Virus record (IMG/VR): IMGVR_UViG_3300027365_000008
Source: a virus
Lineage: Duplodnaviria; Heunggongvirae; Uroviricota; Caudoviricetes
Length of the DNA stretch: 64,000 nt
Reading direction: 5' to 3' (one strand)
Of this stretch, positions 5,590-56,137 are shown piece by piece. The notes under the pieces are model-generated. The model worked only from the letters and a program-made list of their open reading frames with translations, had not been told where the DNA came from and ran no database searches. The position numbers were made by a program, and so were the translations under genes. Numbering within the stretch: position 1 is the stretch's first letter; the number at the start of each line of letters is the position of its first letter.

Positions 5590-5955
5590 ATGGAACAAGA
5601 AAGAGGCTGTATGATAATTGAACGGTCTATCAAACGGGGTATTAAAAATGGATTCATCTATGACGATTTCATGGATCGATGTTCTGGTATATCAGTTCGC
5701 GTAAGAACATTTCATGGAAGGGGTAAGTTTAAGAAGTTGCTTATGGGTGTATATGACAGGAGGGGTGGAACCGGTTGCCTAAGAATATGGTTTTGTAAAT
5801 TTTTGGTACAATCAGAAGAAATAGACCATAGATCGAACGAAATCTATCTTTACAGGTGGGTTAAACAACGAAAAGAAGCTGTCATCTCTGACCCTCGAAT
5901 ACACGACATCTTTAAGGGGTTGTGCGACCGATACTTTGTTGAGAATCTGCTATGA
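5590..5955 (+). CDS. hypothetical protein (paralog of the previous gene)
   Basis: C-terminus YRWVKQRKEAVISDPRIHDIFKGLCDRYFVENLL matches the 5065-5511 product. Confidence 0.45.
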   Translation: MEQERGCMIIERSIKRGIKNGFIYDDFMDRCSGISVRVRTFHGRGKFKKLLMGVYDRRGGTGCLRIWFCKFLVQSEEIDHRSNEIYLYRWVKQRKEAVISDPRIHDIFKGLCDRYFVENLL

Positions 5956-6395: not shown

Positions 6396-7556
6396 ATGAC
6401 CCAGAAGAAACTCGTCCGTAAGATTGATCATCCGACACTTCCGCTTACCATTTCCAAGTACACCAAGACGGCGTTTCATAAACGCAAGTGGACTGAGGAA
6501 GTCATCAATTCACGAGGTCATGTGCATGATACAAATGGGAATCTGGTATCCTGCCCGTTCACCAAGTTTTTCAATCTGAATGAGACAATGGGTACGCGAA
6601 AGGATCATGTGGTTGACCTGATCAGTTCTCATTATCACGAAGCCGAAGTTCATATCAAATACAATGGTCACCTTGGGATTCTATTCAACTATCAGGGCGA
6701 GTGGATTAACACCACGTCTGGGTCATTCGAACACGATTTCATTAAGCCGGATCGTAACATCATCGACGAGAATGGATTCACGCCTGAACTATTAGATCGT
6801 CTTCCGTCTTCATGGACGCTGATCTTTGAAATCATCGGTGAACACGATCCCCATGTGATGACACCTATTCATCAACAGGAGTTGGGACGTGATAGCGCAG
6901 CCGTGCTATTAGGCGTTTACGATTCAACCACTCGTCAACCGGTTGATAACTACGAGAACACCATACTTTCTATCTGGTCTGAACTGGGGTGCAACACATA
7001 TCCGTTGTTCGCCAAGAAGCACAACTTCCGCGATCTGGTTCCTGTTAACACCAAGGAAGCTATCGGTGACTTCTTGGACGAGATGAAAAAGTGGGAAGAT
7101 ATGGAAGGGGTTATCCTTCATGTCCCGTCTATTGACTATAGGGTCAAAATCAAAACTGATTGGTTCATCAAGCATCGGTATATGCGTCAGTTCGATCATG
7201 CGAAGACGAAGGAACTCTTCGTGAACCTCTTTGATTCAGAGAAGGCATTCACCAAGATTCCCGAGGAACTGCATGAAGCCTATGAAACCTTCATCGGTCA
7301 ATACCGAACGTTCGAATCCAGCTACAAGAACACCATCATGGACACGGGAAAGCGTATCGTGGAAGCGTTCAAGACCCGTGATCTGATGAATCACTTTATT
7401 GACACAACAACGGAAATCAAAACAGAAGCGGAACGGGAGGTCATTAAAAGCTATCTCAATGGAGATTCAGATTCTGACCGTCTGATGCGTAACATCTTCG
7501 CTGAGAACATTGAAAACTTTTCGCTTATCGATCAATATATGATGAGTGATACCTAA
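6396..7556 (+). CDS. rnlA: ATP-dependent RNA ligase, T4 Rnl1 (RnlA)-like
   Basis: KFFNLNE motif shared with T4 Rnl1; candidate adenylylation lysine in HIKYNGHLG (KxNG for KxDG); 386 aa, close to T4 Rnl1 size. Confidence 0.65.
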   Translation: MTQKKLVRKIDHPTLPLTISKYTKTAFHKRKWTEEVINSRGHVHDTNGNLVSCPFTKFFNLNETMGTRKDHVVDLISSHYHEAEVHIKYNGHLGILFNYQGEWINTTSGSFEHDFIKPDRNIIDENGFTPELLDRLPSSWTLIFEIIGEHDPHVMTPIHQQELGRDSAAVLLGVYDSTTRQPVDNYENTILSIWSELGCNTYPLFAKKHNFRDLVPVNTKEAIGDFLDEMKKWEDMEGVILHVPSIDYRVKIKTDWFIKHRYMRQFDHAKTKELFVNLFDSEKAFTKIPEELHEAYETFIGQYRTFESSYKNTIMDTGKRIVEAFKTRDLMNHFIDTTTEIKTEAEREVIKSYLNGDSDSDRLMRNIFAENIENFSLIDQYMMSDT

Positions 7557-7569
7557 GAGGACATCTATC

Positions 7570-8739
7570 ATGCTAATCCTGTTGCGCTCGATTTCCTGTA
7601 TGGGGAAATCCACGTTGCTCAAGGCATTCGACAAATCAGACTACGTTTCATCCGATGATCTACGGGTGGAACTGTATGGCACCTACAATATCGATCCTGC
7701 CAAGTCTCAACACGTTTGGAAGGAAATGGCCCATCGCATCGATCTTCGGATGCGCCATGGGCGCTTTACGATTGTAGATGCCACTAACATCTCATTGAAA
7801 GGTATCAATGGGATGAAGCGTATCGCCGAGAATCACGGTCAGGAGACGCGCATCCTCAACATCGTGCCTGACATCAACCTTGCCATGAATCGCCTCTCGC
7901 GCCGCCGTGTGGGCGCTGCTGAGGGTGTTTTGATGCCGGATGCTGCTCTCCTTTGTCAACACGAGAAGTATCAGCGCGAAACGCCCAAAGTCATTGAATC
8001 CCACTCGGATATCTTCTACTCAGGAGATTACAATTCGGTTGAGACTCGGTTGAACTATCTGGCCCATCGTCGTAACAATTACATTGCCGAGACGGACAAC
8101 GTCTTTGTGATTGGCGACATTCATGGCATGAAATCAAAACTGAAAACCATGCTGGACAATCTTCCCAAGGAGTCATTGATTTTCAGTCTCGGTGATATGA
8201 TTGACCGAGGTGAAGATTCGATGGGGACGATCCAGATGCTCATGAACGACCCGCGTTTTGTGGGGTTCACCATGGGCAATCACGAGAAGGCGTTTCTTAA
8301 CGAACTGGAAAACGGAGGCAAATCGGTTTCTAATGCTCGTCAGGTGACCCATCAGGAGTTCAAACGCCTCAAAGTGACACAGCGAAAGGAGATTGTCGAG
8401 TTCCTGAAGCAAGGGAAGACGCATATCGTCCTTGAGCGATCCATCACTGGAAAGCGCTGTCTTCTCACTCATGCAGGGCTGGGTCATTATGATCCGATTC
8501 GGGTGACGTATGATCAGACCATTACTGATAAGGTCAATCCTGTTTCAGAGGTTCCTTCGGATTGGTTTGATATCCAGATTCATGGACACATGAGTTGGGA
8601 ATACAATGGTAACCTTGATGGAGCCGTGAAGAACATCGATTCCGGGTGTGGGCATGGGAAGGAGTTGACGGCTTACAATCCGTTTGACCCATCCCAGACG
8701 ATTGTGGTAACCTCGGATGGATATGTCATTCGGGGCTGA
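7570..8739 (+). CDS. bifunctional polynucleotide kinase / metallophosphoesterase (Pnkp-like)
   Basis: N-terminal P-loop kinase (SISCMGKST, IVDATNISLK as in T4 Pnk) fused to calcineurin-like phosphoesterase motifs (VIGDIHG, SLGDMIDRGEDS, GNHE). ATG at 7570 has RBS aagagga 8 nt upstream; a GTG at 7546 is the alternative start. Confidence 0.7.
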   Translation: MLILLRSISCMGKSTLLKAFDKSDYVSSDDLRVELYGTYNIDPAKSQHVWKEMAHRIDLRMRHGRFTIVDATNISLKGINGMKRIAENHGQETRILNIVPDINLAMNRLSRRRVGAAEGVLMPDAALLCQHEKYQRETPKVIESHSDIFYSGDYNSVETRLNYLAHRRNNYIAETDNVFVIGDIHGMKSKLKTMLDNLPKESLIFSLGDMIDRGEDSMGTIQMLMNDPRFVGFTMGNHEKAFLNELENGGKSVSNARQVTHQEFKRLKVTQRKEIVEFLKQGKTHIVLERSITGKRCLLTHAGLGHYDPIRVTYDQTITDKVNPVSEVPSDWFDIQIHGHMSWEYNGNLDGAVKNIDSGCGHGKELTAYNPFDPSQTIVVTSDGYVIRG

Positions 8740-8776: not shown

Positions 8777-9400
8777 ATGGGAGGTGCTATGGCAAAACAC
8801 AATTACGTCCGCCGAGTCTATGATGTTGATATCGATGTCAACAAGGATTGTGACAAGGACCAGTACGGCACGCGAGCCATGCTTTACAATCAGGAATCCG
8901 AAACCATCACATCACATCCATCGGGCTATTACCTTGAATCGGTTCCTGTCGATCCAGAAACCGGGTGTTGTGCGTTTGATTATGAGTACGGTGACGAGAA
9001 GGGATTCCACAAGATTGACCTGTTGACCAATAGTTCGTACAATGGGTTCTCGTCCAAACAGGAAGTGATCAATGCCCTGACCAGTGAACCACCATGGTCG
9101 AAACTGGGTGACCCTGAGTTTGTTGCCAAATTGCCCCACATCGCCAAACACTTTGATGTGGTGAGTAAGGTGCAACCGCGTTCAATCGAAGAACTGGCAG
9201 ATGTATTGGCTCTGATCCGACCGGGCAAGAAGCACCTTTTGGATGCTTATCTGAAGAACCCCAAATCGGTTCGCAGGAATCTTTACAAGCGATCTACCAA
9301 CGAGCAGATGTACTTCAAGAAGTCGCACAGCATCAGCTATGCTGCTATGATTGTCTGTGTGATGAACAAACTATCTAACCGAACAGCCTTTGTGTGGTGA
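8777..9400 (+). CDS. hypothetical protein
   Basis: ORF; alternative ATG at 8789. Confidence 0.4.
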   Translation: MGGAMAKHNYVRRVYDVDIDVNKDCDKDQYGTRAMLYNQESETITSHPSGYYLESVPVDPETGCCAFDYEYGDEKGFHKIDLLTNSSYNGFSSKQEVINALTSEPPWSKLGDPEFVAKLPHIAKHFDVVSKVQPRSIEELADVLALIRPGKKHLLDAYLKNPKSVRRNLYKRSTNEQMYFKKSHSISYAAMIVCVMNKLSNRTAFVW

Positions 9401-9403
9401 CTT

Positions 9404-9736
9404 ATGAACGGCGTTGAACGATTCATCAAATTCTTTGGAACCAAAAGCATTCATGGCGATGATGGTGATGTGCGTGTGTTTGGATTTGAACGACTTAGGA
9501 CGCAATTCATCGATACCTATGAGCGATACCTTGCGATCAAGGATGATCCAACGTGGAGTACACCTAAGTTCCCCGTCCACATCGTTGTGGATATCTATAC
9601 CACTCGTGATATAGGGTGCGATGTTTACAATTACATTATCAAGCGCATTGAAGCTAATTTTAACTTTCAATTACACCGATACGGGAAAGCACAGAGTGCG
9701 AGTTATCAATTAACGCGAAAAACCTCGTACTTCTAG
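9404..9736 (+). CDS. hypothetical protein
   Basis: ORF ending at the left IS boundary. Confidence 0.35.
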   Translation: MNGVERFIKFFGTKSIHGDDGDVRVFGFERLRTQFIDTYERYLAIKDDPTWSTPKFPVHIVVDIYTTRDIGCDVYNYIIKRIEANFNFQLHRYGKAQSASYQLTRKTSYF

Positions 9737-9771
9737 TGCGAGGATGGATAGCGTGGGGCGCGTCAGCGCCC

Positions 9772-10188
9772 CTATTCCGGCCTTGTTTGCTGCTCGATAT
9801 ATTGCTTGACGACACTCAGCGGTGCTCCGCCGACGCTCCCCGCAAAATAGCTGGGGCTCCATAACGCATTTTTCCTATAGGCAGGCTGCACCAACTCAGG
9901 GTGAAGTAGTTTCATCCGCCTACTCGAAACGCCTTTTAGGCTGTTGACTAGCCGGGAAACCGCCACCTTGGGTGGGAAATTGACCAGCAAGTGAACATGA
10001 TCGGTTTCGCCATTGAATTGCTTTAGTTCGGCCTCGAAGTCCTGGCATACCCGCTTGAACAGGCTTTCAAGGGAATGGAGATGCGCATCATTGAATACCT
10101 TGCCACGATATTTAGTCACAAAGACCAAGTGGGCGTGCATCTCAAAAACGCAGTGCCTGCCAGTTCTGATTGAGTTGATTTTGTCCAT
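9772..10188 (-). CDS. tnpA: IS200/IS605 transposase TnpA (Y1 HUH transposase)
   Basis: HAHLVFVTKYR, HVHLLVNFPP (HUH), VNSLKGVSSR and YFAGSVG motifs; 138 aa. Confidence 0.85.
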   Translation of the reverse strand: MDKINSIRTGRHCVFEMHAHLVFVTKYRGKVFNDAHLHSLESLFKRVCQDFEAELKQFNGETDHVHLLVNFPPKVAVSRLVNSLKGVSSRRMKLLHPELVQPAYRKNALWSPSYFAGSVGGAPLSVVKQYIEQQTRPE

Positions 10189-10209
10189 AGACCCAGTATA
10201 CTCAAAGCC

Positions 10210-10311
10210 ATGAAGCAGACCAAGACATTAAAAGTTCGCGTAAGAGACAAGCACGCTGCCCAGCTTAACCGCATGGCACGCAGCGTGAACTTCGTCTGGT
10301 ATAATTAACGA
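10210..10311 (+). pseudogene. tnpB: tnpB 5' remnant (33 codons)
   Basis: MKQTKTLKVRVRDKHAAQLNRMARSVNFVWYN then a stop; matches the TnpB N-terminal consensus ending in VYN/WYN. Confidence 0.6.
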
Positions 10312-10324
10312 AAGCTAAACGGAG

Positions 10325-10858
10325 TTGATTATGACGACTTGGAAGGACATAGCAGGGTACGAAGGGCTTTACAAGGTGAGTGACGACGGGCGTGTTCGGA
10401 GTTGTGACCGGGAGGTTGGTCACAGATGGGGTGGCACAGCGACGAAGAGAGGCAAGGAGCTTAAATGTCGACAGGATAAGGACGGTTACAGCATTGTCAG
10501 TCTATGCCGAGACGGGAAGAGCAAAACGGCGAAAGTTCACCGGCTCGTAGCGGCACATTTCTTGACTGGGTTTGCAGATGAAAAAGAAGTGAACCACAAA
10601 AACCTCGTCAAATCGGATAACCGAGTAGACAATCTGGAAATAACAGACCGCCGAGGCAACCAACAACACGCGGCTAACTCTGGTGTATTTAGTGGTACGA
10701 AAAACAGCAAAAGAGCCAAGAAACTCACAGCGGCCAAGGCAGACGAGTTACGCTCCATTAGACAATCAACCGAATTAAGCTTCAAAGAATTAGGGCGTAA
10801 ATTCGGAGTGAGCGCCGCAACGGCTTACCATGTATGCAAGAGGGACACATGGACGTGA
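10325..10858 (+). CDS. HNH homing endonuclease (NUMOD4/HNH_3 with a C-terminal IENR/NUMOD-like HTH)
   Basis: WKDIAGYEGLYKVSDDGRVRS (NUMOD4-like); HRLVAAHF..EVNHKN..DNRVDNLE (HNH_3); C-terminal SFKELGRKFGVSAATAY HTH. Confidence 0.75.
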   Translation: MIMTTWKDIAGYEGLYKVSDDGRVRSCDREVGHRWGGTATKRGKELKCRQDKDGYSIVSLCRDGKSKTAKVHRLVAAHFLTGFADEKEVNHKNLVKSDNRVDNLEITDRRGNQQHAANSGVFSGTKNSKRAKKLTAAKADELRSIRQSTELSFKELGRKFGVSAATAYHVCKRDTWT

Positions 10859-10980
10859 ACTCGCGAAGGGAATGCGCGGAGTGTGGTGTGCTCCACGACC
10901 GGGACGTGAACGCGGCCCGGAATATCCTCAGTCTTGCGCTCGGGCATGAGCGTCCAGAAGTGGGAATCCCCGTCCTTTAG
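10849..10980 (+). pseudogene. tnpB: tnpB 3' remnant (zinc-finger C-terminus)
   Basis: ECAECGVLHDRDVNAARNILSLALG, the typical TnpB C-terminus; different frame from the HNH ORF. Confidence 0.6.
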
Positions 10981-10993
10981 GGCGGGGAGGATG

Positions 10994-11310
10994 TCAAGAA
11001 GAGGTGATGCGTTTGGTCTTTCTCTCAAAGGAAGTTTGACCTAGTTCTTTGTAGCTATCTGTGATAGCCTTCTTAGCAATGACCACCGGGGGCTGGATGG
11101 CAACATGCGGGTAGAACTTGGCTTTGAACACCGAGAAGCGCAGCATCGGATACTCCATCTTCCAATGGATAGCAATCGCCAGCAGTTCGGGGGCATTATG
11201 ATTGGAACCGAAATCGTAAAAGATGACCTGCTTCTTGGTGCAGAAGTCAACGATTCCTTTGTAGTAAATGTCTTGTGTTTGGATTACATCAAGTAGGGCT
11301 TCTTGCATAG
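10994..11310 (-). CDS. hypothetical protein
   Basis: Minus-strand ORF abutting the IS right end. Start placed at the internal ATG (MQEALL...) preceded by gagg, because the longer ORF overlaps the next + gene. Confidence 0.35.
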
Positions 11311-11354
11311 TGACCTCGTTTTGCAGTGTATTTATAAGCGAATTGTAAGGAACA

Positions 11355-11948
11355 ATGAAAATGATAATCGAATCAGTTGAACACTTCACCGACAAAGAAG
11401 AAGCAATGTTATCTTTCTGTGCGAGCATCATTCGTGTGGATATAGATTCCCCACTGGCTCGTTCTCTCTATGAGGAATGGGTTAACCACGTCGGTACTAA
11501 GGCACACCAAGAAGGTTTCTATGTAGATTTCAAATTAAGTGCTCTGTATGATTATGCTGGGGAGCGTAGTCTATTGTATGATATTTATGGGGATAATGCT
11601 GGAAACAGTTTTATAAGAATCGATGAAGCGGTGACAGGATCATCAGGAGACAGTATTTTGTTTGGTTATGAACCTCCTTATGGTGGTGATTTTTTGATGT
11701 TATATGGTATTTCGCCTCGCTTTCGATCAAAACATCATAGGGTAGGTGAGCCAATAGACAGCCCGATTGTTTGGTTAATAGCCAACCAAAAGGGATTTTA
11801 TCTCGTCACACCTATCACTGATGAGTTTTATAGTCATTTGAAATATGTTGTTGGTGAAGAGGAACTTAGAGAAATTCTCAGTAAAGAGATTGGATCAGAA
11901 GAAATGAAAGATGATCTTAACAATATGATTTCAATGAAACATCTGTGA
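11355..11948 (+). CDS. hypothetical protein, member of a tandem paralog family
   Basis: N-terminus IIESVEHFTDKEEAMLSFCASIIRVD resembles the next gene. Confidence 0.45.
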   Translation: MKMIIESVEHFTDKEEAMLSFCASIIRVDIDSPLARSLYEEWVNHVGTKAHQEGFYVDFKLSALYDYAGERSLLYDIYGDNAGNSFIRIDEAVTGSSGDSILFGYEPPYGGDFLMLYGISPRFRSKHHRVGEPIDSPIVWLIANQKGFYLVTPITDEFYSHLKYVVGEEELREILSKEIGSEEMKDDLNNMISMKHL

Positions 11949-12605
11949 TTGATGGATAGGAGAGTCTTCATGATGATCGAATCTGTTAAGAGGTACGATG
12001 AAACGGAATCAGCTTTCGTCGGGTTCTGTGCTAGTCTTTTGGGTGTTGACGATGAATCCAAATTTGCCGCTTCCATGTTTCGCTGTTGGAGAATGTATGT
12101 TGAAAAGCGTTATAATCAGGGTATCAAGCGCGCTATGGTGTTGAACTTCGTTGATATGATATTCCATGAAACACTGTTGAATAGGGAGTCGTTGCCCACC
12201 GACTTCTTCTATCACGTCTTCCATGATAAAACCTATTTGAAAGAAGGGTCTATCGATATAGACGAACGTGCAAAAGGCTCAAGAGGGGTTCGACATTTGG
12301 GATTCGATGGAGTTGCGAGGAAAGACTTCCCATTAATGCTTCTGGGGCAAGTTATGATAGAGATTTTCACGGTACACCCTGATTACAATCAGCCCGCTTG
12401 GATGATAAAATTCGAATCTACTCCCTACTATGTTCTCAAATCAACACCCATTGACGGGGATGATACGGTTCGCCATCTGCCATATATGTTAGATGAGACT
12501 GTTGATGAAGGTCTTACAATGTTACAACAGATCACCGAGGAATCCGAGAACGAGGAAATGCTTAAAGCATCGATCAATAATATCTGTAGTTTCAGAGCAT
12601 TATAG
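11949..12605 (+). CDS. hypothetical protein, member of a tandem paralog family
   Basis: N-terminus MIESVKRYDETESAFVGFCASLLGVD parallels the 11355 product. Confidence 0.45.
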   Translation: MMDRRVFMMIESVKRYDETESAFVGFCASLLGVDDESKFAASMFRCWRMYVEKRYNQGIKRAMVLNFVDMIFHETLLNRESLPTDFFYHVFHDKTYLKEGSIDIDERAKGSRGVRHLGFDGVARKDFPLMLLGQVMIEIFTVHPDYNQPAWMIKFESTPYYVLKSTPIDGDDTVRHLPYMLDETVDEGLTMLQQITEESENEEMLKASINNICSFRAL

Positions 12606-12942: not shown

Positions 12943-13464
12943 ATGCCAATTATCACAGAAGTGCGTCGAACGACTACTTTCAGAGACGCCATGAGGCTGT
13001 TGCTGGAAGTTGGATTGAACTCGTATGACATCAGTGAATCAGAAATAGATCGACTGTATGAAAAATGGCATCGCAGTGTGTTGGACAAGGTTGAACATAG
13101 AGGTTATACAAAGATATTTGTAGATGCAGAAATGTTGGTAGAGATTGGTGATTTTGCTGACGGGATACATATCTTCGTTGACGAAGGCGGTGGTCGTAAA
13201 TCGGCTTTTAAGTATCTATTTGAAGATGAGAAATCGTATGAAATGTGCAATCTTCTCTTAGATGTTGTCGAGCCGACATCGAATAGAAATCACCTGACTG
13301 CGGCTTGGCTTTTTGGCTTCGGTGATAGTTTCTTTGTCATTAAGAATGGAAGTAGACGTGAAGAACTCCATTTTTCTTATGTGTTGGAATCTGCATTTGA
13401 TGAAGTGGGCGTCATCGATCTGGTAACCAACTCCAAAGATGCTGAAAGTTCCGTGAACATATAG
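12943..13464 (+). CDS. hypothetical protein, possibly a third member of the paralog family
   Basis: N-terminal EVGLNSYDISESEIDRLYEKWHRSV.KVEHRGY resembles the SLYEEWVNHVGTKAHQEGF region of the 11355 product. Confidence 0.4.
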   Translation: MPIITEVRRTTTFRDAMRLLLEVGLNSYDISESEIDRLYEKWHRSVLDKVEHRGYTKIFVDAEMLVEIGDFADGIHIFVDEGGGRKSAFKYLFEDEKSYEMCNLLLDVVEPTSNRNHLTAAWLFGFGDSFFVIKNGSRREELHFSYVLESAFDEVGVIDLVTNSKDAESSVNI

Positions 13465-19799: not shown

Positions 19800-21746
19800 A
19801 TGATGAGTTCATACGATCTTCAATACCAAGCGGCACTCAATCGTATTCTTCAATATGGATACGATTCTGATGACAGAACCGGTGTCGGAACCCGAAAGAT
19901 GTTCGATGTCAACTTCAATGATGATCTGCGTCATGAAGTGGCTGACGAATATAAACTACCGGCACTAACCATTCGCAAGGTCTTCCCCCGCACGGCATTC
20001 TATGAACTGATGTGGATGCTCAACGGGATTACCAACGTCGATTGGCTATATGAACGAAACATCAACATCTGGAATGGAAACAGCACTCGGGAGTTCCTTG
20101 ATTCTCGTGGTCTGTATCATATCCGTGAAGGGCATATCGGTCGCGGCTATGGCTATCAGATTCGCAACTTCAATGGGGTCGATCAACTCGAAGAACTGTT
20201 CAAGGGACTGTATTACAATCCTAACGGTAGGCGACATCTAATCTCATTCTGGAATCCCGGCGATCTGAAAGAGATGGCTCTGCCTCCATGTTTCGTTGCG
20301 GGAACACAGGTTGCTCTCGCTACAGGGGAATATAAGGCCATCGATTCGATTTCGGTAGGTGATTCGGTCTTAACATCATCCGGCGAATATCATCAGGTCT
20401 ACAATGTGATGAAAACCCCTTATGACGGGGATTTTGTAACTATCAAAGCTACGGGAATTCCAAACACGACATGTACTCCAAACCATCTCTTTCTGGTCAA
20501 GGACAAAGGATATGTTAAGGCTTCTTCCATCAACGTAGGTGACTTTGTGCTTGTTAGAGGGGCAAGCGAACACGAAAATATTCCTTCTTTCGAAATCAAG
20601 AAACATTCTAAAGCGTGGGGGGTAGAATCAGAACGAACGGAAGAAATATTTAGATTGGATTCCGAAGAGAAATGGTTTATGCTTGGGTACTTCGTAGGTA
20701 ATGGGTATGTGACATCTAATCGAGAGGGAGCAAAGCCAGACCGAGGAACGATATCAATACCTCTACATAAAGAAAATGATATAATCAATAGGTTTGGTGG
20801 TGTTATTAATCTCTATGTCAAGAATAGAACACAATCCATGGTGGCTATGGAATTCAGTTCTCGTAGATGGTCGACTGTCTTTAGAGAATTCGGGAGCAAA
20901 GCGCATGGGAAATTCATCCCTACGTGGGTTGAAGAATCTCCTAAGTGGGCAATTGAATCTTTCCTTGAAGGATATATCGCAGCAGATGGATGCATACTAG
21001 GAAATTCGTATTCGATAACGACGGTATCGCCATCATTGGCATACGGGGTTCAACGGTTATTCACTAAAATGGGTAAATCGGCTCGGGTCAGTAAACAAGT
21101 TCGACCAAAGACTACGATCATAGAGGGCAGAATTGTCAACCAAAGAGACACGTATACAATATCCGTAAGGATTGATGAGACAAAACGAAGATCATTCAAT
21201 TTCATCCATAATGAGAGTGGGATGTGGTGTAAGGTGGCTAAAGTTACCCACGAGAAGTCGAATGAACACGATGGGTTTGTGTATAACCTTAGCGTAGATA
21301 CTGATCACACGTACACTGCGAACAACATAGTCAATCATAATTGCCATTTATTGTACAATTTCGTTGTGACCGGGGAATATCTCAATCTGAAGTTCTATCA
21401 GCGCAGTGCCGATATGATCCTCGGGGTTCCGACAAACATCTGTTTTGCGACATTCTTCCTGACACTGGTCGCCAAATCACTTGGTTTCAAGGTCGGCGAA
21501 GTGGCCCATTCGATTGGGGATGCTCATATCTATTCCAATCATATTGAAGTCGCCGAAGAACTCGTTAATCGAGATGCCTTCGATCAACCCGTCTTCTCGA
21601 TGTGGGTTCCCAAATACGATCCGACGCAGGGAATCGAAAGCGTGCTGGCTCCTTATCGTGATGAAAACGCATGGGAAACGTATGTCCACCTGACCTACAA
21701 ATCTCATCCGCCCATTGACAAGTCACGGCTGACCATGGCAGTATAA
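19800..21746 (+). CDS. thyA: thymidylate synthase ThyA interrupted by an in-frame intein
   Basis: ThyA motifs (GYQIRNF, ALPP-C-H..YNFVV, DAHIY); a 351-aa insertion begins directly after ALPP and ends VNHN before the catalytic Cys. Confidence 0.85.
   Translation: MMSSYDLQYQAALNRILQYGYDSDDRTGVGTRKMFDVNFNDDLRHEVADEYKLPALTIRKVFPRTAFYELMWMLNGITNVDWLYERNINIWNGNSTREFLDSRGLYHIREGHIGRGYGYQIRNFNGVDQLEELFKGLYYNPNGRRHLISFWNPGDLKEMALPPCFVAGTQVALATGEYKAIDSISVGDSVLTSSGEYHQVYNVMKTPYDGDFVTIKATGIPNTTCTPNHLFLVKDKGYVKASSINVGDFVLVRGASEHENIPSFEIKKHSKAWGVESERTEEIFRLDSEEKWFMLGYFVGNGYVTSNREGAKPDRGTISIPLHKENDIINRFGGVINLYVKNRTQSMVAMEFSSRRWSTVFREFGSKAHGKFIPTWVEESPKWAIESFLEGYIAADGCILGNSYSITTVSPSLAYGVQRLFTKMGKSARVSKQVRPKTTIIEGRIVNQRDTYTISVRIDETKRRSFNFIHNESGMWCKVAKVTHEKSNEHDGFVYNLSVDTDHTYTANNIVNHNCHLLYNFVVTGEYLNLKFYQRSADMILGVPTNICFATFFLTLVAKSLGFKVGEVAHSIGDAHIYSNHIEVAEELVNRDAFDQPVFSMWVPKYDPTQGIESVLAPYRDENAWETYVHLTYKSHPPIDKSRLTMAV
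20289..21341 (+). other. intein with a LAGLIDADG homing endonuclease domain inside thyA
   Basis: Block A CFVAGTQVAL; two LAGLIDADG-like motifs (LGYFVGNGYV, LEGYIAADGC); C-terminal IVNHN followed by +1 Cys, which is the ThyA catalytic cysteine. Confidence 0.75.
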
Positions 21747-25329: not shown

Positions 25330-28300
25330 ATGTCAACGATTATGGTTACCAAGCGTGATGGAAGCGTGGAAGACTTCAAGGTTGAGAAGGTTCGCAAATG
25401 CATCAACTGGGCATGTGAAGGTCTTCAAGTCAATCCTCTCGCATTGGAATCCCGTTTCAATGAATATCTCCAAACCGAAGTAACCACCAAAGTCATTCAA
25501 GACAGCCTCGTGTTCTGTGCGCGTTCCCTAGCCACGGCGGCTGATTCGGATTTCGTGTTCGTCGCGGGTCGCCTGATGACCATGAACATCTGGAAAGAGA
25601 CGGGCATCTATGAGAAGCCCTTCTATGACGTGCTGACCGATGGCGTGGTTCCCTATGCTATCGATAACACAATTCTTTCGAAATACACCAAAGCCGAGAT
25701 CGAGGAACTGGGTTCCTATATGGTTCAGGAACGTGATCTGAATCATAGCTTTGGTAGCGTTCTGACGGCGATCAACAAGTACCTGCTTCCTAATGAAGCC
25801 ATCCAGCCGATGATCATGGCATCCTCGATGATCATTGCCAGTGTGGAGGATCAGGAGATTCGTGTTGCGAAGGCCAAAGAGTTCTATGATTCTTTGTCAA
25901 ATCGTGAACTTTCTTTGGCAACTCCGTGGTGGGGTAACCTGCGCAGCGATGGCAATATCAGTTCGTGTTTCATCATCAAGCCGAGTGATAGCCTCGAATC
26001 GATCTTCGCTAATGTGACTCGTGCCGCAATGACTTCCAAGGCGGGTGGTGGCCTTGGCGTGTCTATGGCAGCTATTCGTGCCCAAGGCTCTCCGGTCGGT
26101 GGGCGTCCCAACTCGTCCAAAGGCGTATTCAATTGGACGAAGATTTTCAATGATGTTGCGATTGCGGTTGACCAGTGTTTTCATCCTGATACACTAGTCA
26201 CCACTCAGAATGGATTCAAGGCAATCAAAGACATTATTCCCCGCGAGGATCGTGTTCTCACCGACAACGGGAAGTTTAACCGGGTAGAAGAAAAGATCAT
26301 GTATGAGCAAAGCGAGCCGATGTATCGTGTTCGCACAGCACATGATCTTGTCGATACCTTTGTAACCGGGGAACATCCCGTTAAGGCTCTTACCAATCTG
26401 GATACCCTTGAACATGGTTACTTGGATGTGAAGGACTTGGAGATTGGTGATTATCTGGGTCAGAAGATTCCGTCTTATACGATTGAATCGGAGTTGACCC
26501 ATGAAGAACTGTACGCTTATGGTACGTCGCTCATGCTTCCGGGGGCAAATCACATCGATTCTCGATTCCTCCATATTGAACCTGAGAAACAGATGTCGAT
26601 TATCTTTGGTATGATCGATGCCAAAGGATCGGCTGACAATGCAAATGAACTGATCATCGAATCTGCGAATCTGGCTCATGAGATTCGATATCTGCTTCTC
26701 CGTAATGGAATCCCAGTAAAATCAGAATACGTCGGGGGATCATTCAAACTCACTATCCAAGCCACTGGCAAGCTGGCTCTTATGCTTGGTGTCAACGATG
26801 TCGAAGAGGTTGACTGGATCGTTTCGGATGGGTATATTTTCAGCCCCATCACTGAGTTTGAGGACGGGATTGAATACAATTCAGAAGTTTACGATCTGCG
26901 TGTGCAGAGTATTCCGTCTTATCAAACACATGCGTTCATGGCTCACAACGGCGGCAAGCGGGCAGGAGCCATTACCGTCGAACTCCCGATCTGGCACCGT
27001 GACATCGAAGGGTTCCTTGAGATTCAACATGAAACCGGCGATCTGCGCACCAAGTGCTTTGACATCTTTCCGCAAGTCGGGATGCATGATCTGTTCATGA
27101 AAATGGATGCGGCTGATGGTGAAAACGATTGGCATACATTCTGTCCGTATGAAGTGAAACAGGTTCTCGATATCCAACTGGATGAAGTTTACGGCAAGGA
27201 GTTCGAAAAGGCGTACAAGAAGTGTGTCAAAGCCTATGAGAAGGGTGATCTGAAGAACGTCGCCGTGTACAAGACACGTAACCTGATCAAGTCGATGATG
27301 CGTACCCAGTTCGAATCTGGTCTTCCGTATGTGGCCTATCTGGACACCATCAATGATGACAACCCGAATGACCATGAAGGCACGATTCCTTCCGTCAACC
27401 TTTGTGTCGCTCCCGAGACTTTGGTGCTGACTGACAAGGGCAATCTTCCTATCGTAACACTGAAAGATCAGTGGGTTAACGTCTGGAATGGACACGAGTT
27501 TAGCGAGGTCTTGGTTGAAAAGACGGCGGACCATGCTCATCTGCTGCATGTAGAAACGGAAGGCGGTCGTTCACTGGATGCGACGGACTATCACAAATGG
27601 TATCGCGTCGTCGATGGTGAAATGGAAATGGTTCGGACCTTTGAACTGAAACCGGGCGATGAAGTTTGTGTAGTCGATAACTATCCCATTGATCGTATCA
27701 AGTCTATTGATGACCAATACCGGTGGTCTGATGTATACTGTTTCAATGAACCGAAACGGCATCTGGGCGTATTCAATGGCATTATCACCGGGCAATGCAA
27801 TGAGTCATTCAGTGTCGTCAAGCCGGATGTCTATGGTCACTCGTGCAATCTGATCTCTATCGTCGCCGGTCGAGTTAAGGATTACGAACATCTGGAATAT
27901 CTGGCAGGTCTTGCGACTCGAATGCTTGACAATGGGATCGAACTGACCAAAGACCCCATGGACATTGCCGGTGCCCATAATGAGCGTTACCGCACGATTG
28001 GTATTGGCATCCAAGGTCTTCACGATTGGCTTGCCAAGAATCGCAAGATGTACAACGATACTAAATTCATCGGTGAGTTTGCAGAGACGATTCAATTTGG
28101 TGCGGTGAAAGAGAGCATCAAACTAGCTAAAGAACGCGGCGCGTATCCGGCGTACTCGGGTTCTCGGTGGGATACCGGTAAGCAGATTGCCAAGTATCGC
28201 AAGCACAGTCGTCGTGGTCTTGACTGGAATTCTTTGCAAACTGGACTTGATCAATATGGCATCCGCAATAGCCAATTGACTTCTCCGGCACCGAACACAA

Positions 28301-28695
28301 CCACGTCCATTTTCATGGATGCAGGTCCGGGCGTGATGCCGTGCTATGGTGGGTTCTATCTCAAGGACAATACCAATGGGGAGTTCCCGGTTGCCGGTAT
28401 GTATCTGAAAGAGAATCCGTTGTGCTATGCCAAGAATGCGGCTCGCTATGATCATGAAACACTCGTCAATGCGGTTGCCGAAATCCAGAAGTTCACGGAT
28501 GCGGGCATTTCGAGCGAGTATATCTTTGACCACAACAAAGAGGGCTTCAGTGCGAAAGAACTGTATGATCTGATTCATCTGGCATGGCGTAAGAAGACCA
28601 AGGCGGTCTATTACATTCGTAACATCAAGAAAGGTTCTAACCTCGAAGAAGAGGTCGGCATGAGCCAAGCATCATGCGAAGGTTGCGCAAACTAA
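25330..28695 (+). CDS. nrdA: class Ia ribonucleotide reductase alpha subunit NrdA carrying two inteins
   Basis: ATP cone (VTKRDGSVEDF); SSCFII (Cys225 region); GGKRAGAITVELPIWH; NLC-N-E active-site loop; C-terminal CEGC. Two in-frame insertions carry intein blocks. Confidence 0.85.
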   Translation: MSTIMVTKRDGSVEDFKVEKVRKCINWACEGLQVNPLALESRFNEYLQTEVTTKVIQDSLVFCARSLATAADSDFVFVAGRLMTMNIWKETGIYEKPFYDVLTDGVVPYAIDNTILSKYTKAEIEELGSYMVQERDLNHSFGSVLTAINKYLLPNEAIQPMIMASSMIIASVEDQEIRVAKAKEFYDSLSNRELSLATPWWGNLRSDGNISSCFIIKPSDSLESIFANVTRAAMTSKAGGGLGVSMAAIRAQGSPVGGRPNSSKGVFNWTKIFNDVAIAVDQCFHPDTLVTTQNGFKAIKDIIPREDRVLTDNGKFNRVEEKIMYEQSEPMYRVRTAHDLVDTFVTGEHPVKALTNLDTLEHGYLDVKDLEIGDYLGQKIPSYTIESELTHEELYAYGTSLMLPGANHIDSRFLHIEPEKQMSIIFGMIDAKGSADNANELIIESANLAHEIRYLLLRNGIPVKSEYVGGSFKLTIQATGKLALMLGVNDVEEVDWIVSDGYIFSPITEFEDGIEYNSEVYDLRVQSIPSYQTHAFMAHNGGKRAGAITVELPIWHRDIEGFLEIQHETGDLRTKCFDIFPQVGMHDLFMKMDAADGENDWHTFCPYEVKQVLDIQLDEVYGKEFEKAYKKCVKAYEKGDLKNVAVYKTRNLIKSMMRTQFESGLPYVAYLDTINDDNPNDHEGTIPSVNLCVAPETLVLTDKGNLPIVTLKDQWVNVWNGHEFSEVLVEKTADHAHLLHVETEGGRSLDATDYHKWYRVVDGEMEMVRTFELKPGDEVCVVDNYPIDRIKSIDDQYRWSDVYCFNEPKRHLGVFNGIITGQCNESFSVVKPDVYGHSCNLISIVAGRVKDYEHLEYLAGLATRMLDNGIELTKDPMDIAGAHNERYRTIGIGIQGLHDWLAKNRKMYNDTKFIGEFAETIQFGAVKESIKLAKERGAYPAYSGSRWDTGKQIAKYRKHSRRGLDWNSLQTGLDQYGIRNSQLTSPAPNTTTSIFMDAGPGVMPCYGGFYLKDNTNGEFPVAGMYLKENPLCYAKNAARYDHETLVNAVAEIQKFTDAGISSEYIFDHNKEGFSAKELYDLIHLAWRKKTKAVYYIRNIKKGSNLEEEVGMSQASCEGCAN
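26176..26949 (+). other. intein 1 in nrdA (258 aa, LAGLIDADG-type) with a non-canonical +1 residue
   Basis: Block A CFHPDTLV; block B TGEHPVKALT; IIFGMIDAKGS LAGLIDADG-like; block G VYDLRVQ...HAFMAHN; the next extein residue is Gly, not Cys/Ser/Thr. Confidence 0.65.
27403..27795 (+). other. intein 2 in nrdA (131-aa mini-intein) ending in Gln
   Basis: Inserted at NL|C-N-E; block A CVAPETLVLT; block G VYCFNEPKRHLGVFNGIITGQ followed by +1 Cys (the active-site Cys439 equivalent). Confidence 0.65.
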
Positions 28696-54715: not shown

Positions 54716-56137
54716 CTACCCTACATCGCGCATGTAGATCGTCTTGCAGTCTTCCAGTTCAATATCTGAAGCGCCCTCGGATGTAATCACCAGCAGGTTT
54801 CGACATTCCATCGGAAGCGCCGATTCCAGTGATTGGTGGGGGATATAGCCATCCGTGAAAATGATGAGTGCGTTGATAGGCTCACCATCATCCAGTTTCT
54901 CGCCAGCATATTCAGCCAACGGGGCCATGTCCGTTCCACCCCCGCCAATCCAATCGAGACTGACGTTACTGAAGTCGTCACCGTCCTCGGAGTTGTAGAT
55001 ACCGATAACGTGATAGCTGGTATCACATGTCACCAGATGCACGGTCCATGACTCAAATTGATCGAGAATACCCTTAAGTTCGGCAGCGGCTTCCTTGAGT
55101 TCACGTTCGCTCATCGAACCTGACGTGTCAACACCCCACACCAGTTCAATCTTGCTCCCTGTCAAACTCGGGAACACCACACCACCTTCACCCGTTCGAC
55201 GGGACAGACGATTGTAGGTCGGGCGTTCCTTAGTGGAGGCAACGATGTTTTCGTTAAGTTCATCTTTCCAGTTAACGCGGGGCTTCGCTAAGTCTTGGAA
55301 AGAACGCACCATGTCGCCTTCATGCTCACCAATACTTTTTGTGGCACTGGCGTTCGCAACAGCAGCCGCAGCTTCCTGACGGTTCATGCCCTTTTCACCG
55401 TCGCTTTGCTCACGCCCCGAAACGCTATCCATGGGCATCTGACCAGCCGGAGCGCCACCCGCGCTTCCTTGGCCCTTCGATGGCTTGTCCTTTCCTTGTT
55501 GCCCGGCTTGACCTTCACCGTCATCAGGGCGCTGACCGCCGCCGTGGGCTTCGCACGCTTTCTGCGCGTCACCATCGTTCTCTTCAAGCAACAGATGGTA
55601 AATCTCATCAGATGACATGCCCACGAAGCGTTCTTGATATAGAACGAACTCGGGCCGTTCTACATAAAGACGAAATCGCTCATCATGCGAAACACCATCG
55701 TTCTCAGTCTTGTACGTACCTGAACAGAACAAATTGATGTTGTAATCCGTGGCGATGTTCCACAATTCAGGATTGTAACCGGATTCCATCTGACGCCCGG
55801 AGTGTTCCTGAAAGATATGAAGAATCTCATGGAGCAACACGAACGCCCGCTGTTCGTTGTTTTCCAAACGATTCATCCAGAATACCGGGTTAATGAAGAT
55901 CATGTTTTTGCCATTGACCGGCATCGCGCCAGCCGTGGGCAGATCGGGCGACCAGAAATACACACACTGAAACATCAGATGCGCCATGAGCGGGGATGCA
56001 ATCGCAATGCTCGCTCGTGCTTCCGAAAAGGTTTCCATCCATTCAGGCTGAATGTCCTTGTCTTTGATTAGAGTCGGCATCCGGGTCAGCATGACCTCGC
56101 CGATGCCATCCTCTTTCTTATCAGTCTGTGTGGTCAT
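54716..56137 (-). CDS. VWA-domain protein with an N-terminal DUF2201-like HExxH domain (CobT-like partner of a MoxR ATPase)
   Basis: LLHEILHIFQEH; MIDAS motif WGVDTSGSMS; G/Q/A-rich linker. Confidence 0.65.
   Translation of the reverse strand: MTTQTDKKEDGIGEVMLTRMPTLIKDKDIQPEWMETFSEARASIAIASPLMAHLMFQCVYFWSPDLPTAGAMPVNGKNMIFINPVFWMNRLENNEQRAFVLLHEILHIFQEHSGRQMESGYNPELWNIATDYNINLFCSGTYKTENDGVSHDERFRLYVERPEFVLYQERFVGMSSDEIYHLLLEENDGDAQKACEAHGGGQRPDDGEGQAGQQGKDKPSKGQGSAGGAPAGQMPMDSVSGREQSDGEKGMNRQEAAAAVANASATKSIGEHEGDMVRSFQDLAKPRVNWKDELNENIVASTKERPTYNRLSRRTGEGGVVFPSLTGSKIELVWGVDTSGSMSERELKEAAAELKGILDQFESWTVHLVTCDTSYHVIGIYNSEDGDDFSNVSLDWIGGGGTDMAPLAEYAGEKLDDGEPINALIIFTDGYIPHQSLESALPMECRNLLVITSEGASDIELEDCKTIYMRDVG

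Follow-up and report, generated by a model that had tools for sequence, protein, structure and literature searches.

Insertion sequence (IS) elements of the IS200/IS605 group are understood to be kept from loss by TnpB, the ancestor of Cas12. In IscB, an HNH domain is inserted into a RuvC protein, and the omega RNA lies 5′. In two reports (PMC10055086, PMC10690162), TnpB and its omega RNA are presented as the transposon's own programmable homing nuclease. Non-coding RNAs of the HgcC and sotRNA kinds lie at tnpB 3′ ends (PMC4615843), and in the IStron a group I intron is fused to an IS605-type element (PMC4227781; bioRxiv 10.1101/2023.11.20.567912). For phage nuclease genes in general, co-conversion and mosaic boundaries have been described (PMC10448857). 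Here we describe an IS200/IS605 element in a stretch of 64,000 nucleotides (the window) from the Caudoviricetes record IMGVR_UViG_3300027365_000008, in which the core of tnpB has been replaced by a cassette encoding an HNH homing endonuclease.

The explanation that best accounts for the data, to which a probability of about 0.6 is assigned, is that the HNH protein is a homing endonuclease with tnpB as its homing site, lodged in an IS shell that probably still transposes. An earlier note on this DNA, made from the sequence alone, proposed either a homing-endonuclease invasion of an IS or a chimeric mobile element. The invasion is the better supported of the two, because the same junctions recur in other contigs, the cassette outmatches the backbones around it and one of the backbones has a 99% identical twin with an intact tnpB. 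The chimeric element is also a fair description, as both ends and tnpA are intact. The features of the element, in window coordinates, are as follows.

9703..9707, + strand: TTATC, the target pentanucleotide, resembling a target-adjacent motif (TAM); it abuts the left end in all copies of the window-type IS
9708–10997: the whole IS200/IS605 element, with its target TTATC at 9703–9707
9708..9772, + strand: left end (LE), two hairpins with stems at 9723–9743 (imperfect) and 9755–9772
9772..10188, − strand: tnpA, an intact Y1 (HUH) transposase of 138 aa (Pfam Y1_Tnp, E 2.5e-40)
10175..10202, + strand: sigma-70-like promoter 5′ of the tnpB start, TTGATT-16-TATACT, a weak pattern match (9/12 of the consensus)
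10210..10299, + strand: tnpB N stub, codons 1–30, by tblastn to TnpB residues 1–30
10297–10305, + strand: extended −10 TGGTATAAT of the cassette, its TGG shared with the N stub
10300..10863, + strand: HNH cassette of 564 bp, in place of about 859 bp of tnpB core
10321–10324, + strand: ribosome-binding site GGAG of the HNH gene
10331..10858, + strand: I-HmuI-like HNH homing-endonuclease gene, 175 aa, ATG at 10331 and stop at 10856–10858
10864..10980, + strand: tnpB C stub, the last ~38 codons, with the last CxxC of the zinc finger, HDRDVNAARNIL... and the stop
10883..11010, + strand: 3′ region with an omega-RNA-like structure (HgcC-like, Rfam); it shares sequence with the C stub and the right end and extends into the flank
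10937..10997, + strand: right end (RE), three stems and the terminal GGATGTCAA
10937–10952, 10954–10963 and 10967–10988, + strand: the RE stems (DNA fold z −3.7)
10998..11013, + strand: flank that would serve as omega-RNA guide if TnpB came in trans, by the known TnpB/omega-RNA layout

The shell of the element can be traced to a bacterial IS. Window positions 9703–10299 and 10868–10998 are 88% and 89–94% identical, respectively, to intact Halomonadaceae elements (blastn). Between these blocks the intact elements carry ~859 bp of tnpB and the window 564–568 bp of unrelated DNA; from 10300 to ~10867 blastn detected no homology to intact IS. The Halomonadaceae genomes with the closest TnpA hold intact elements, with tnpA divergent from a tnpB of 346–357 aa, so that the search for intact copies proposed in the earlier note was successful both there and in a viral contig, L243, considered below. 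By these matches the backbone is of Halomonadaceae type, and the core of its tnpB (~859 bp) has been replaced, which is more than mere interruption. The divergent tnpA is indeed intact, as had been proposed. Its match to Y1_Tnp spans model positions 1–121 of 121, the translation shows the HUH motif HVHLL and the tyrosine motif SPSYF, and its closest relatives are Halomonadaceae proteins, 91–94% identical, including Phytohalomonas/Halomonas TnpA annotated as IS200/IS605 transposases (94%).

Both remnants of tnpB align to TnpB. The open reading frame (ORF) of the N stub, 10210–10308 (+), has 32 codons plus a stop (10306–10308), one codon fewer than first reported. Its residues 1–30 align with TnpB 1–30 of Ralstonia phage Dimitile (63%) and Bacillus phage Dartukuta, the first 28 are identical to intact Halomonas TnpB, and nucleotide identity to intact Halomonas tnpB is 91%. 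The C-stub fragment reads ...RRECAECGVLHDRDVNAARNILSLALGHERPEVGIPVL up to the stop (to 10980) and is the TnpB zinc-finger C-terminus that it had been taken for: it matches Pfam Cas12f1-like_TNB above cut-off (E 9e-7), aligns with residues ~321–357 of full-length TnpB at 69–72% (tblastn, phage-borne IS copies), and its last 26 residues are identical to Halomonas TnpB. The two stubs share one reading frame. What remains of tnpB is residues 1–30 and ~316–353, with no further tnpB within the 64-kb window.

The protein encoded between the stubs matches NUMOD4 (E 6e-16) and HNH_3 (E 3e-7) in Pfam, both above cut-offs, and the structure of I-HmuI (PDB 1U3E) with an E of 8e-17. Residues H70, N88, H89, N101, N110 and H113 occupy invariant columns of its subclade alignment, in which the window protein is included. 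The earlier assignment to NUMOD4/HNH_3 is therefore upheld and its IENR-type label is not, since the C-terminal residues ~133–170 gave only sub-threshold helix-turn-helix (HTH) matches (HTH_31, 17.7 bits against a cut-off of 27). Judged by a dN/dS of 0.11–0.38 among relatives, the HNH gene is under purifying selection. An exact look-up of the 175-aa product returned no match; the gene was probably called from the TTG at 10325.

The cassette is joined to tnpB at precise positions. The left junction lies exactly past the codon for W30, where the window reads GTCTGG/TATAAT and intact copies GTCTGG/AACTAC (the slash marks the junction), and the right junction lies just 5′ of the last zinc-finger CxxC. 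A 17-nt identity, GTCTGGTATAATTAACG, was also noticed between window 10294–10310, at the HNH junction and promoter, and L144 ~2729–2745, in the promoter of a ribbon-helix-helix (RHH) gene. This identity hints that the left junction may have arisen through GTCTGG microhomology.

The arrangement is not peculiar to the window. A search with the HNH protein delineated a small subclade (P0001–P0011, 44–98% identity). The same order of N stub, promoter, HNH gene, C stub and RE, with the cassette in the sense of tnpB, was found in contigs L004–6, L007, L147/148, L008 and L144, whose HNH proteins are 98% (L004–6), 52% (L007, L147/148 and L008) and 51% (L144) identical to that of the window. L149 (52%) also has both stubs, with a shorter C stub and a degenerate right end. 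Across the recurrent copies, the left junction follows the VNFVW codons and the right junction precedes the last CxxC. At least six other backbones, recovered from independent samples, have the layout, and every cassette-bearing contig with enough sequence for a judgement appears to derive from a phage (portal, terminase, ERF, dUTPase). In L008 (277–918, P0003) the HNH ORF continues without a frame break into the TnpB C stub and encodes a 213-aa HNH–TNB fusion; the P0003 protein cluster has 16 members, and its 957-bp contig, which retains only the 3′ half of tnpA, is present in 17 samples.

Sister elements usually carry a small RHH gene in place of tnpA, and among the cassette-bearing elements retrieved only the window copy has a complete tnpA. 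The RHH gene is divergent from the stub in L004 and upstream of it in L007, L147 and L144, where the RHH stop overlaps the tnpB start. The overlap is ATGA/GTGA in several elements. L243 is a viral contig with an element composed of an RHH gene and an intact tnpB. The CopG-like RHH genes are located as follows.

L004, ~5680–5823, − strand: RHH (CopG-like) gene
L007, 5752–5883, + strand: RHH (CopG-like) gene
L147, 595–759, + strand: RHH (CopG-like) gene
L144, 2746–2880, + strand: RHH (CopG-like) gene
L243, 2501–2629, + strand: RHH (CopG-like) gene

Beyond this subclade no association with tnpB was seen in the loci scanned. Searches with NUMOD4/HNH_3 in IMG/VR, GTDB, JGI metagenomes and GenBank phages yielded generic genes in the hundreds, and L163 was the sole addition. 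No tnpB remnants were seen near more distant HNH relatives in 80 IMG/VR and 80 metagenome loci scanned. GTDB-genome hits and another 47 IMG/VR loci did not exceed 49% identity to the window protein, and no HNH relative above 42% identity was present in 50,697 GenBank phages. The stub–HNH–stub layout itself was not encountered among these phages, the IMG/VR loci retrieved or the GTDB hits. The recurrence bears directly on the idea of one-off decay, in which a dead IS copy was hit by a phage endonuclease gene and a deletion, with no biological continuity. The tnpB of the window is non-functional and its element is single-copy, as such an accident would leave them. Against it stand the recurrence of the architecture in those six or more backbones, an intact tnpA and purifying selection on the HNH gene, which together make a chance origin very improbable.

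Evidence that the cassette moves separately from its backbone comes from comparison of alleles. Between the window and L004, which has RHH for tnpA, the cassettes are identical at 557 of 564 positions (98.8%), with lower identity in the N stub (93%), the C stub and RE (93%) and the LE (89%). On the left, the 27 nt adjoining the junction are identical, and on the right the adjoining ~40–70 nt contain three differences only. Both junction-proximal stretches carry bases that are common to the window and L004 and missing in intact IS copies. In the distal parts of the stubs, the window follows the intact L155-type and L004 the L152-type, which differ by a compensatory stem (GCTC/GAGC versus GGCG/CGCC). 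As read from these alignments, the pattern of identity is a co-conversion gradient.

A similar disparity was observed for L007 and L147, where the cassettes are 95%–100% identical, the rest of the element is 60%–80% identical and the phage flanks are unrelated. For this pair dS, the synonymous divergence, is 0.073 in the HNH gene and 1.40 in the adjacent RHH gene, a roughly 19-fold contrast. The L007-type cassette (97%) is also present in a backbone that is 72%–77% identical (23%–28% divergent). A single ancient capture followed by strict co-divergence of cassette and IS was considered and is ruled out, because the window stubs are nearer to intact Halomonas IS (91%–94%) than to cassette-bearing stubs outside their own clade (50%–76%).

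An intact counterpart of an invaded backbone is provided by L243, an IMG/VR contig found through a search with the RHH proteins. Its element is arranged LE–RHH–intact tnpB–RE, and the tnpB product of 350 aa has OrfB_IS605 and TNB domains. L243 2386–2696 is 98.7% identical to L007 5637–5947, and L243 3598–3699 is 99% identical to L007 6543–6644. Between these blocks L243 has a 901-bp tnpB core and L007 a 595-bp cassette region. Identity is lost inside GCGGGCGGT, 22 nt before TGGTATAAT, and is regained at CATGATCGTGA, about 17 nt past the stop. The two elements occupy different sites, each after TCATC. Near-identical alleles thus differ in the presence or absence of the cassette, with co-conversion of the flanks. 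Taken together, the allele comparisons show that the cassette spreads laterally among IS backbones.

A different account of these mosaics is that the HNH gene is a passenger in a tnpB-defective IS, serving the phage (e.g., against host or competitor DNA) and not targeted to tnpB, and that the mosaics reflect ordinary recombination during co-infection. In its favour, NUMOD4/HNH_3 genes abound in phages, most of them free-standing (1,799 GenBank phage records match), no target site emerged from a conservation scan of intact tnpB, and inverted cassettes and duplicated junction codons suggest illegitimate events. However, one HNH subclade only is linked to tnpB, at the same two junctions, across ~50% protein divergence, and the sharp drop in identity at the edges, the ~19-fold contrast in dS and the 99% twin with intact tnpB are better fitted by endonuclease-driven conversion. 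A passenger role is for these reasons regarded as unlikely.

Under the preferred explanation, homing into tnpB, a Halomonadaceae-type IS200/IS605 element inserted beside TTATC in the genome of a large lytic phage, and an I-HmuI-like HNH cassette with its own extended −10 promoter has replaced the tnpB core. The cassette would be the active selfish unit and the HNH subclade a resident of tnpB, spreading from backbone to backbone as the short tnpB stubs recombine. What most probably sets this off would be cutting by the HNH protein of tnpB alleles without the cassette, with repair templated by a cassette-bearing element through the N and C stubs (homing). The deletion would be copied along with the cassette, so that the target disappears and the RNA-guided nuclease is destroyed; an RNA-guided homing device would be swapped for a protein-only one working for the cassette. 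The IS shell, for its part, keeps LE, RE and the structured 3′ end, with TnpA supplied in cis in the window, while the sisters would depend on TnpA in trans. The anatomy, its recurrence, the identical junction positions, the mosaic of identities and the intact/invaded pair are seen directly in the sequences; that the HNH protein cleaves tnpB, that conversion has this direction and that the composite transposes is inferred. A broader proposal, put forward tentatively and with somewhat less than even odds, is that this protein-only HNH lineage has specialised on tnpB, cutting intact copies and overwriting their core, turning IS elements of phage genomes into carriers movable by TnpA (in cis or in trans) and perhaps, during infection, also cutting tnpB copies, of which host chromosomes hold many.

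Several observations weigh against homing into tnpB. L145, L146, L150/151 and L163 have the same stubs, with the cassette between them running opposite to tnpB. A C-stub remnant of TnpB is inverted upstream of the HNH gene in all four of these inverted contigs, and the inverted N stub was read downstream of it in L145 and L150/151. A duplicate, VNFVW-like 15-mer accompanies the cassette in L007/L147 and also, along with the cassette's promoter, in the inverted copies. Neither inverted cassettes nor duplicate VNFVW codons are predicted by simple homologous homing, and the 17-nt identity to L144 is likewise poorly explained by it; these observations point to occasional illegitimate events. In the conservation scan, which covered four intact tnpB genes, the junction regions were not outstandingly conserved and no clear candidate for a recognition site emerged. 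The transitions from high to low identity lie very near the cassette edges, and the intact/invaded pair gives no direction of conversion. About a dozen metagenome contigs, a number of them short, make up the cassette sample. Among the retrieved contigs there were no two copies of one cassette-bearing backbone at different sites, and the phage empty site was not found in GenBank phage and IMG/VR searches.

The ends of the element are those of an IS200-type transposon. Its limits are 9708–10997 instead of the 9740–10995 originally given, which missed about 32 nt of the left end. The hairpins read earlier as IS ends are confirmed as such: both LE and RE hairpins are conserved with the ends of intact copies, and their folds are more stable than those of shuffled sequence (LE −19.5 kcal/mol, z −4.1; RE z −3.7). 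The LE matches its counterparts in intact Halomonas IS copies and in L004 at 87%–89% identity. The terminal GGATGTCAA and hairpin of the RE are common to all checked intact copies with a complete right end and are also present in six HNH-bearing lineages, but not in L149. TTATC adjoins the LE in the window, five Halomonadaceae copies, Dartukuta, L004 and the mini-element of L259, and the DNA further left differs each time; right flanks diverge immediately past ...GTCAA across copies. A search for terminal inverted repeats of the element found none. The reconstructed empty site of the window element is ...GAGTTATC/GAAGAGGTGATG..., and its predicted RE–LE circle junction is GGATGTCAA/AATTAACGCG.

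The retention of LE, RE and an intact tnpA implies that the composite should still be movable by TnpA. The separate TTATC-flanked sites in L004 and L259 suggest that elements with these ends are mobilised. L259 2530–2791, in another viral contig, is an ORF-less, TTATC-flanked mini-element of ~260 bp, whose LE agrees with the L004 LE at 53/53 nt and whose RE is at 92%; it resembles a palindrome-associated or miniature inverted-repeat transposable element (PATE/MITE) derived from the same IS type. The window element is single-copy, with nothing else resembling TnpA, TnpB or HNH in the 64 kb. For the empty site, a DNA search of the flanks against GenBank phages gave the IS alone, tblastn with the upstream ORF gave nothing, and IMG/VR peptide-pattern scans with both flanking ORFs gave no relatives. 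The flanking phage ORFs, 9404–9736 (+) and 10994–11311 (−), take their terminal codons and stops from the IS ends, about nine codons in the left ORF and the last codon only in the right, and the insertion therefore altered both C-termini.

The ends and insertion sites also bear on the idea that the HNH protein functionally replaces TnpB, cutting the emptied donor site after excision by TnpA so that the element is copied back. The HNH gene sits exactly at the tnpB position in an otherwise complete element, and TnpB is known as the element's homing nuclease (PMC10055086, PMC10690162). The specificity of an I-HmuI-type, protein-only enzyme is fixed, however, and cannot follow variable sites, and the insertion sites of the copies are unrelated apart from TTATC or TCATC on the left. 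In addition, some relatives have an inverted cassette or have lost the RE, and most sisters are without tnpA and so without excision in cis. Functional substitution is accordingly judged improbable, well below a passenger role.

The earlier note had advised looking for an omega-RNA remnant at the right end. A match to HgcC over the full model length is present there, at 25.1 bits (E 0.005) against a gathering score of 50. This sub-threshold match is also found in intact relatives, at their tnpB 3′ ends. In the Rfam scan of 9000–12000 (E ≤ 1) only HgcC and sot0042 appeared, both sub-threshold, and no group I intron ribozyme was detected. A consensus fold of ten 3′ ends contains 28 pairs, 7 of them compensatory. 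By the fold and the alignments the structured region is kept intact; its conservation is not equivalent to continued use, because the stubs descend recently from intact elements, and retention alone is no sign of it.

Could the retained 3′ end and the HNH protein form a new RNA-guided nuclease? The deletion ends ~19 nt short of the HgcC-like match, and the structured region is whole in most copies. The protein, in contrast, is a typical DNA-binding I-HmuI homologue without an RNA-binding module, the gene is inverted relative to the 3′ end in four lineages, and L149 has lost part of the structured region. Recent descent from intact IS copies explains the retention well enough, and of the explanations weighed here a new RNA-guided nuclease is the most remote.

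The window covers the part of a large lytic phage genome devoted to replication and nucleotide metabolism, the closest named phages being Alishewanella phages, only 54% identical in a neighbouring protein. Other proteins of this phage are on record, on metagenome contigs of 158 and 56 kb. Further selfish elements are present in the window. The thymidylate synthase gene, 19800–21746 (+), contains an in-frame intein with a LAGLIDADG homing endonuclease at about aa 163–514 (Pfam Intein_splicing, LAGLIDADG_3, Hom_end and Hint). The ribonucleotide reductase large subunit, 25330–28695 (+), 1121 aa, has a ~250-aa insert between its N-terminal part and the barrel domain, possibly a second intein, with Intein_splicing below threshold. 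An RNA ligase-like gene, 6396–7556 (+), is followed by an AAA_33 and Metallophos kinase/phosphoesterase fusion, 7546–8739 (+), and the two look like an RNA-repair pair. Tandem ORFs at 11355–11948 and 11949–12605, and perhaps 12943–13464 (+), have a common N-terminal motif (..IESV..F..E.A...FCAS..) and look like a local paralogue family without a Pfam match. For the 473-aa protein of 54716–56137 (−), the PHROGs label 'HNH endonuclease' (phrog_1314) seems misleading and was rejected, as Pfam gives DUF2201_N and DUF2201 only (metallopeptidase/VWA-like).

If the homing explanation is correct, a classical homing endonuclease appears to treat tnpB as its homing site, one selfish element parasitising another, and two layers of mobility, transposition by TnpA and endonuclease-driven conversion, would be contained in 1.3 kb. 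An enzyme that recognises tnpB would be a natural antagonist of TnpB-bearing transposons, would explain some phage tnpB pseudogenes, and would constitute a compact nuclease with a target that is multi-copy in many bacterial genomes. The allele pairs L243/L007 and Halomonas IS/window make the idea directly testable.

How the element compares with described systems can now be stated. With IS605-type elements, in which tnpA and tnpB are divergent, it shares a Y1 HUH transposase, LE and RE hairpins, an apparent insertion 3′ of TTATC and a 3′ end of tnpB that overlaps a putative structured RNA; the Ralstonia phages Dimitile and Hyacinthe carry relatives with the annotation ISPa83/ISMex20-like. It differs in that ~859 bp of tnpB core, including the RuvC motifs, is swapped for an unrelated nuclease gene. 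With I-HmuI-type and other free-standing phage homing endonucleases ('intronless homing') it shares NUMOD4 and HNH_3, allele polymorphism, co-conversion and mosaic boundaries. In those systems a conserved phage gene or intron is colonised, whereas here it is the accessory nuclease of a transposon; a large segment is substituted instead of an intergenic position being occupied, and the host locus is itself mobile.

As with the IStron, an IS200/IS605 chassis here bears another selfish element in a nested, long-standing association, but the protein-coding endonuclease cassette destroys tnpB rather than coexisting with it. Nuclease-stimulated recombination that biases the inheritance of a selfish element is shared with TnpB/omega RNA (PMC10055086, PMC10690162); here recognition would be protein-only, the cassette is the likely beneficiary and the RNA-guided enzyme is eliminated. 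IscB/HEARO likewise place an HNH nuclease inside an IS200/IS605-like element beside a structured RNA, but the present protein is an I-HmuI homologue without a RuvC domain. In the full-text literature searched, including a 2026 review of homing endonucleases and OMEGA systems, no description of a protein-only endonuclease cassette nested in tnpB was found. The parts are all known, from IS200/IS605 elements and I-HmuI-type enzymes to nested chimeras such as IStrons; it is their combination, and the apparent target, that is new.

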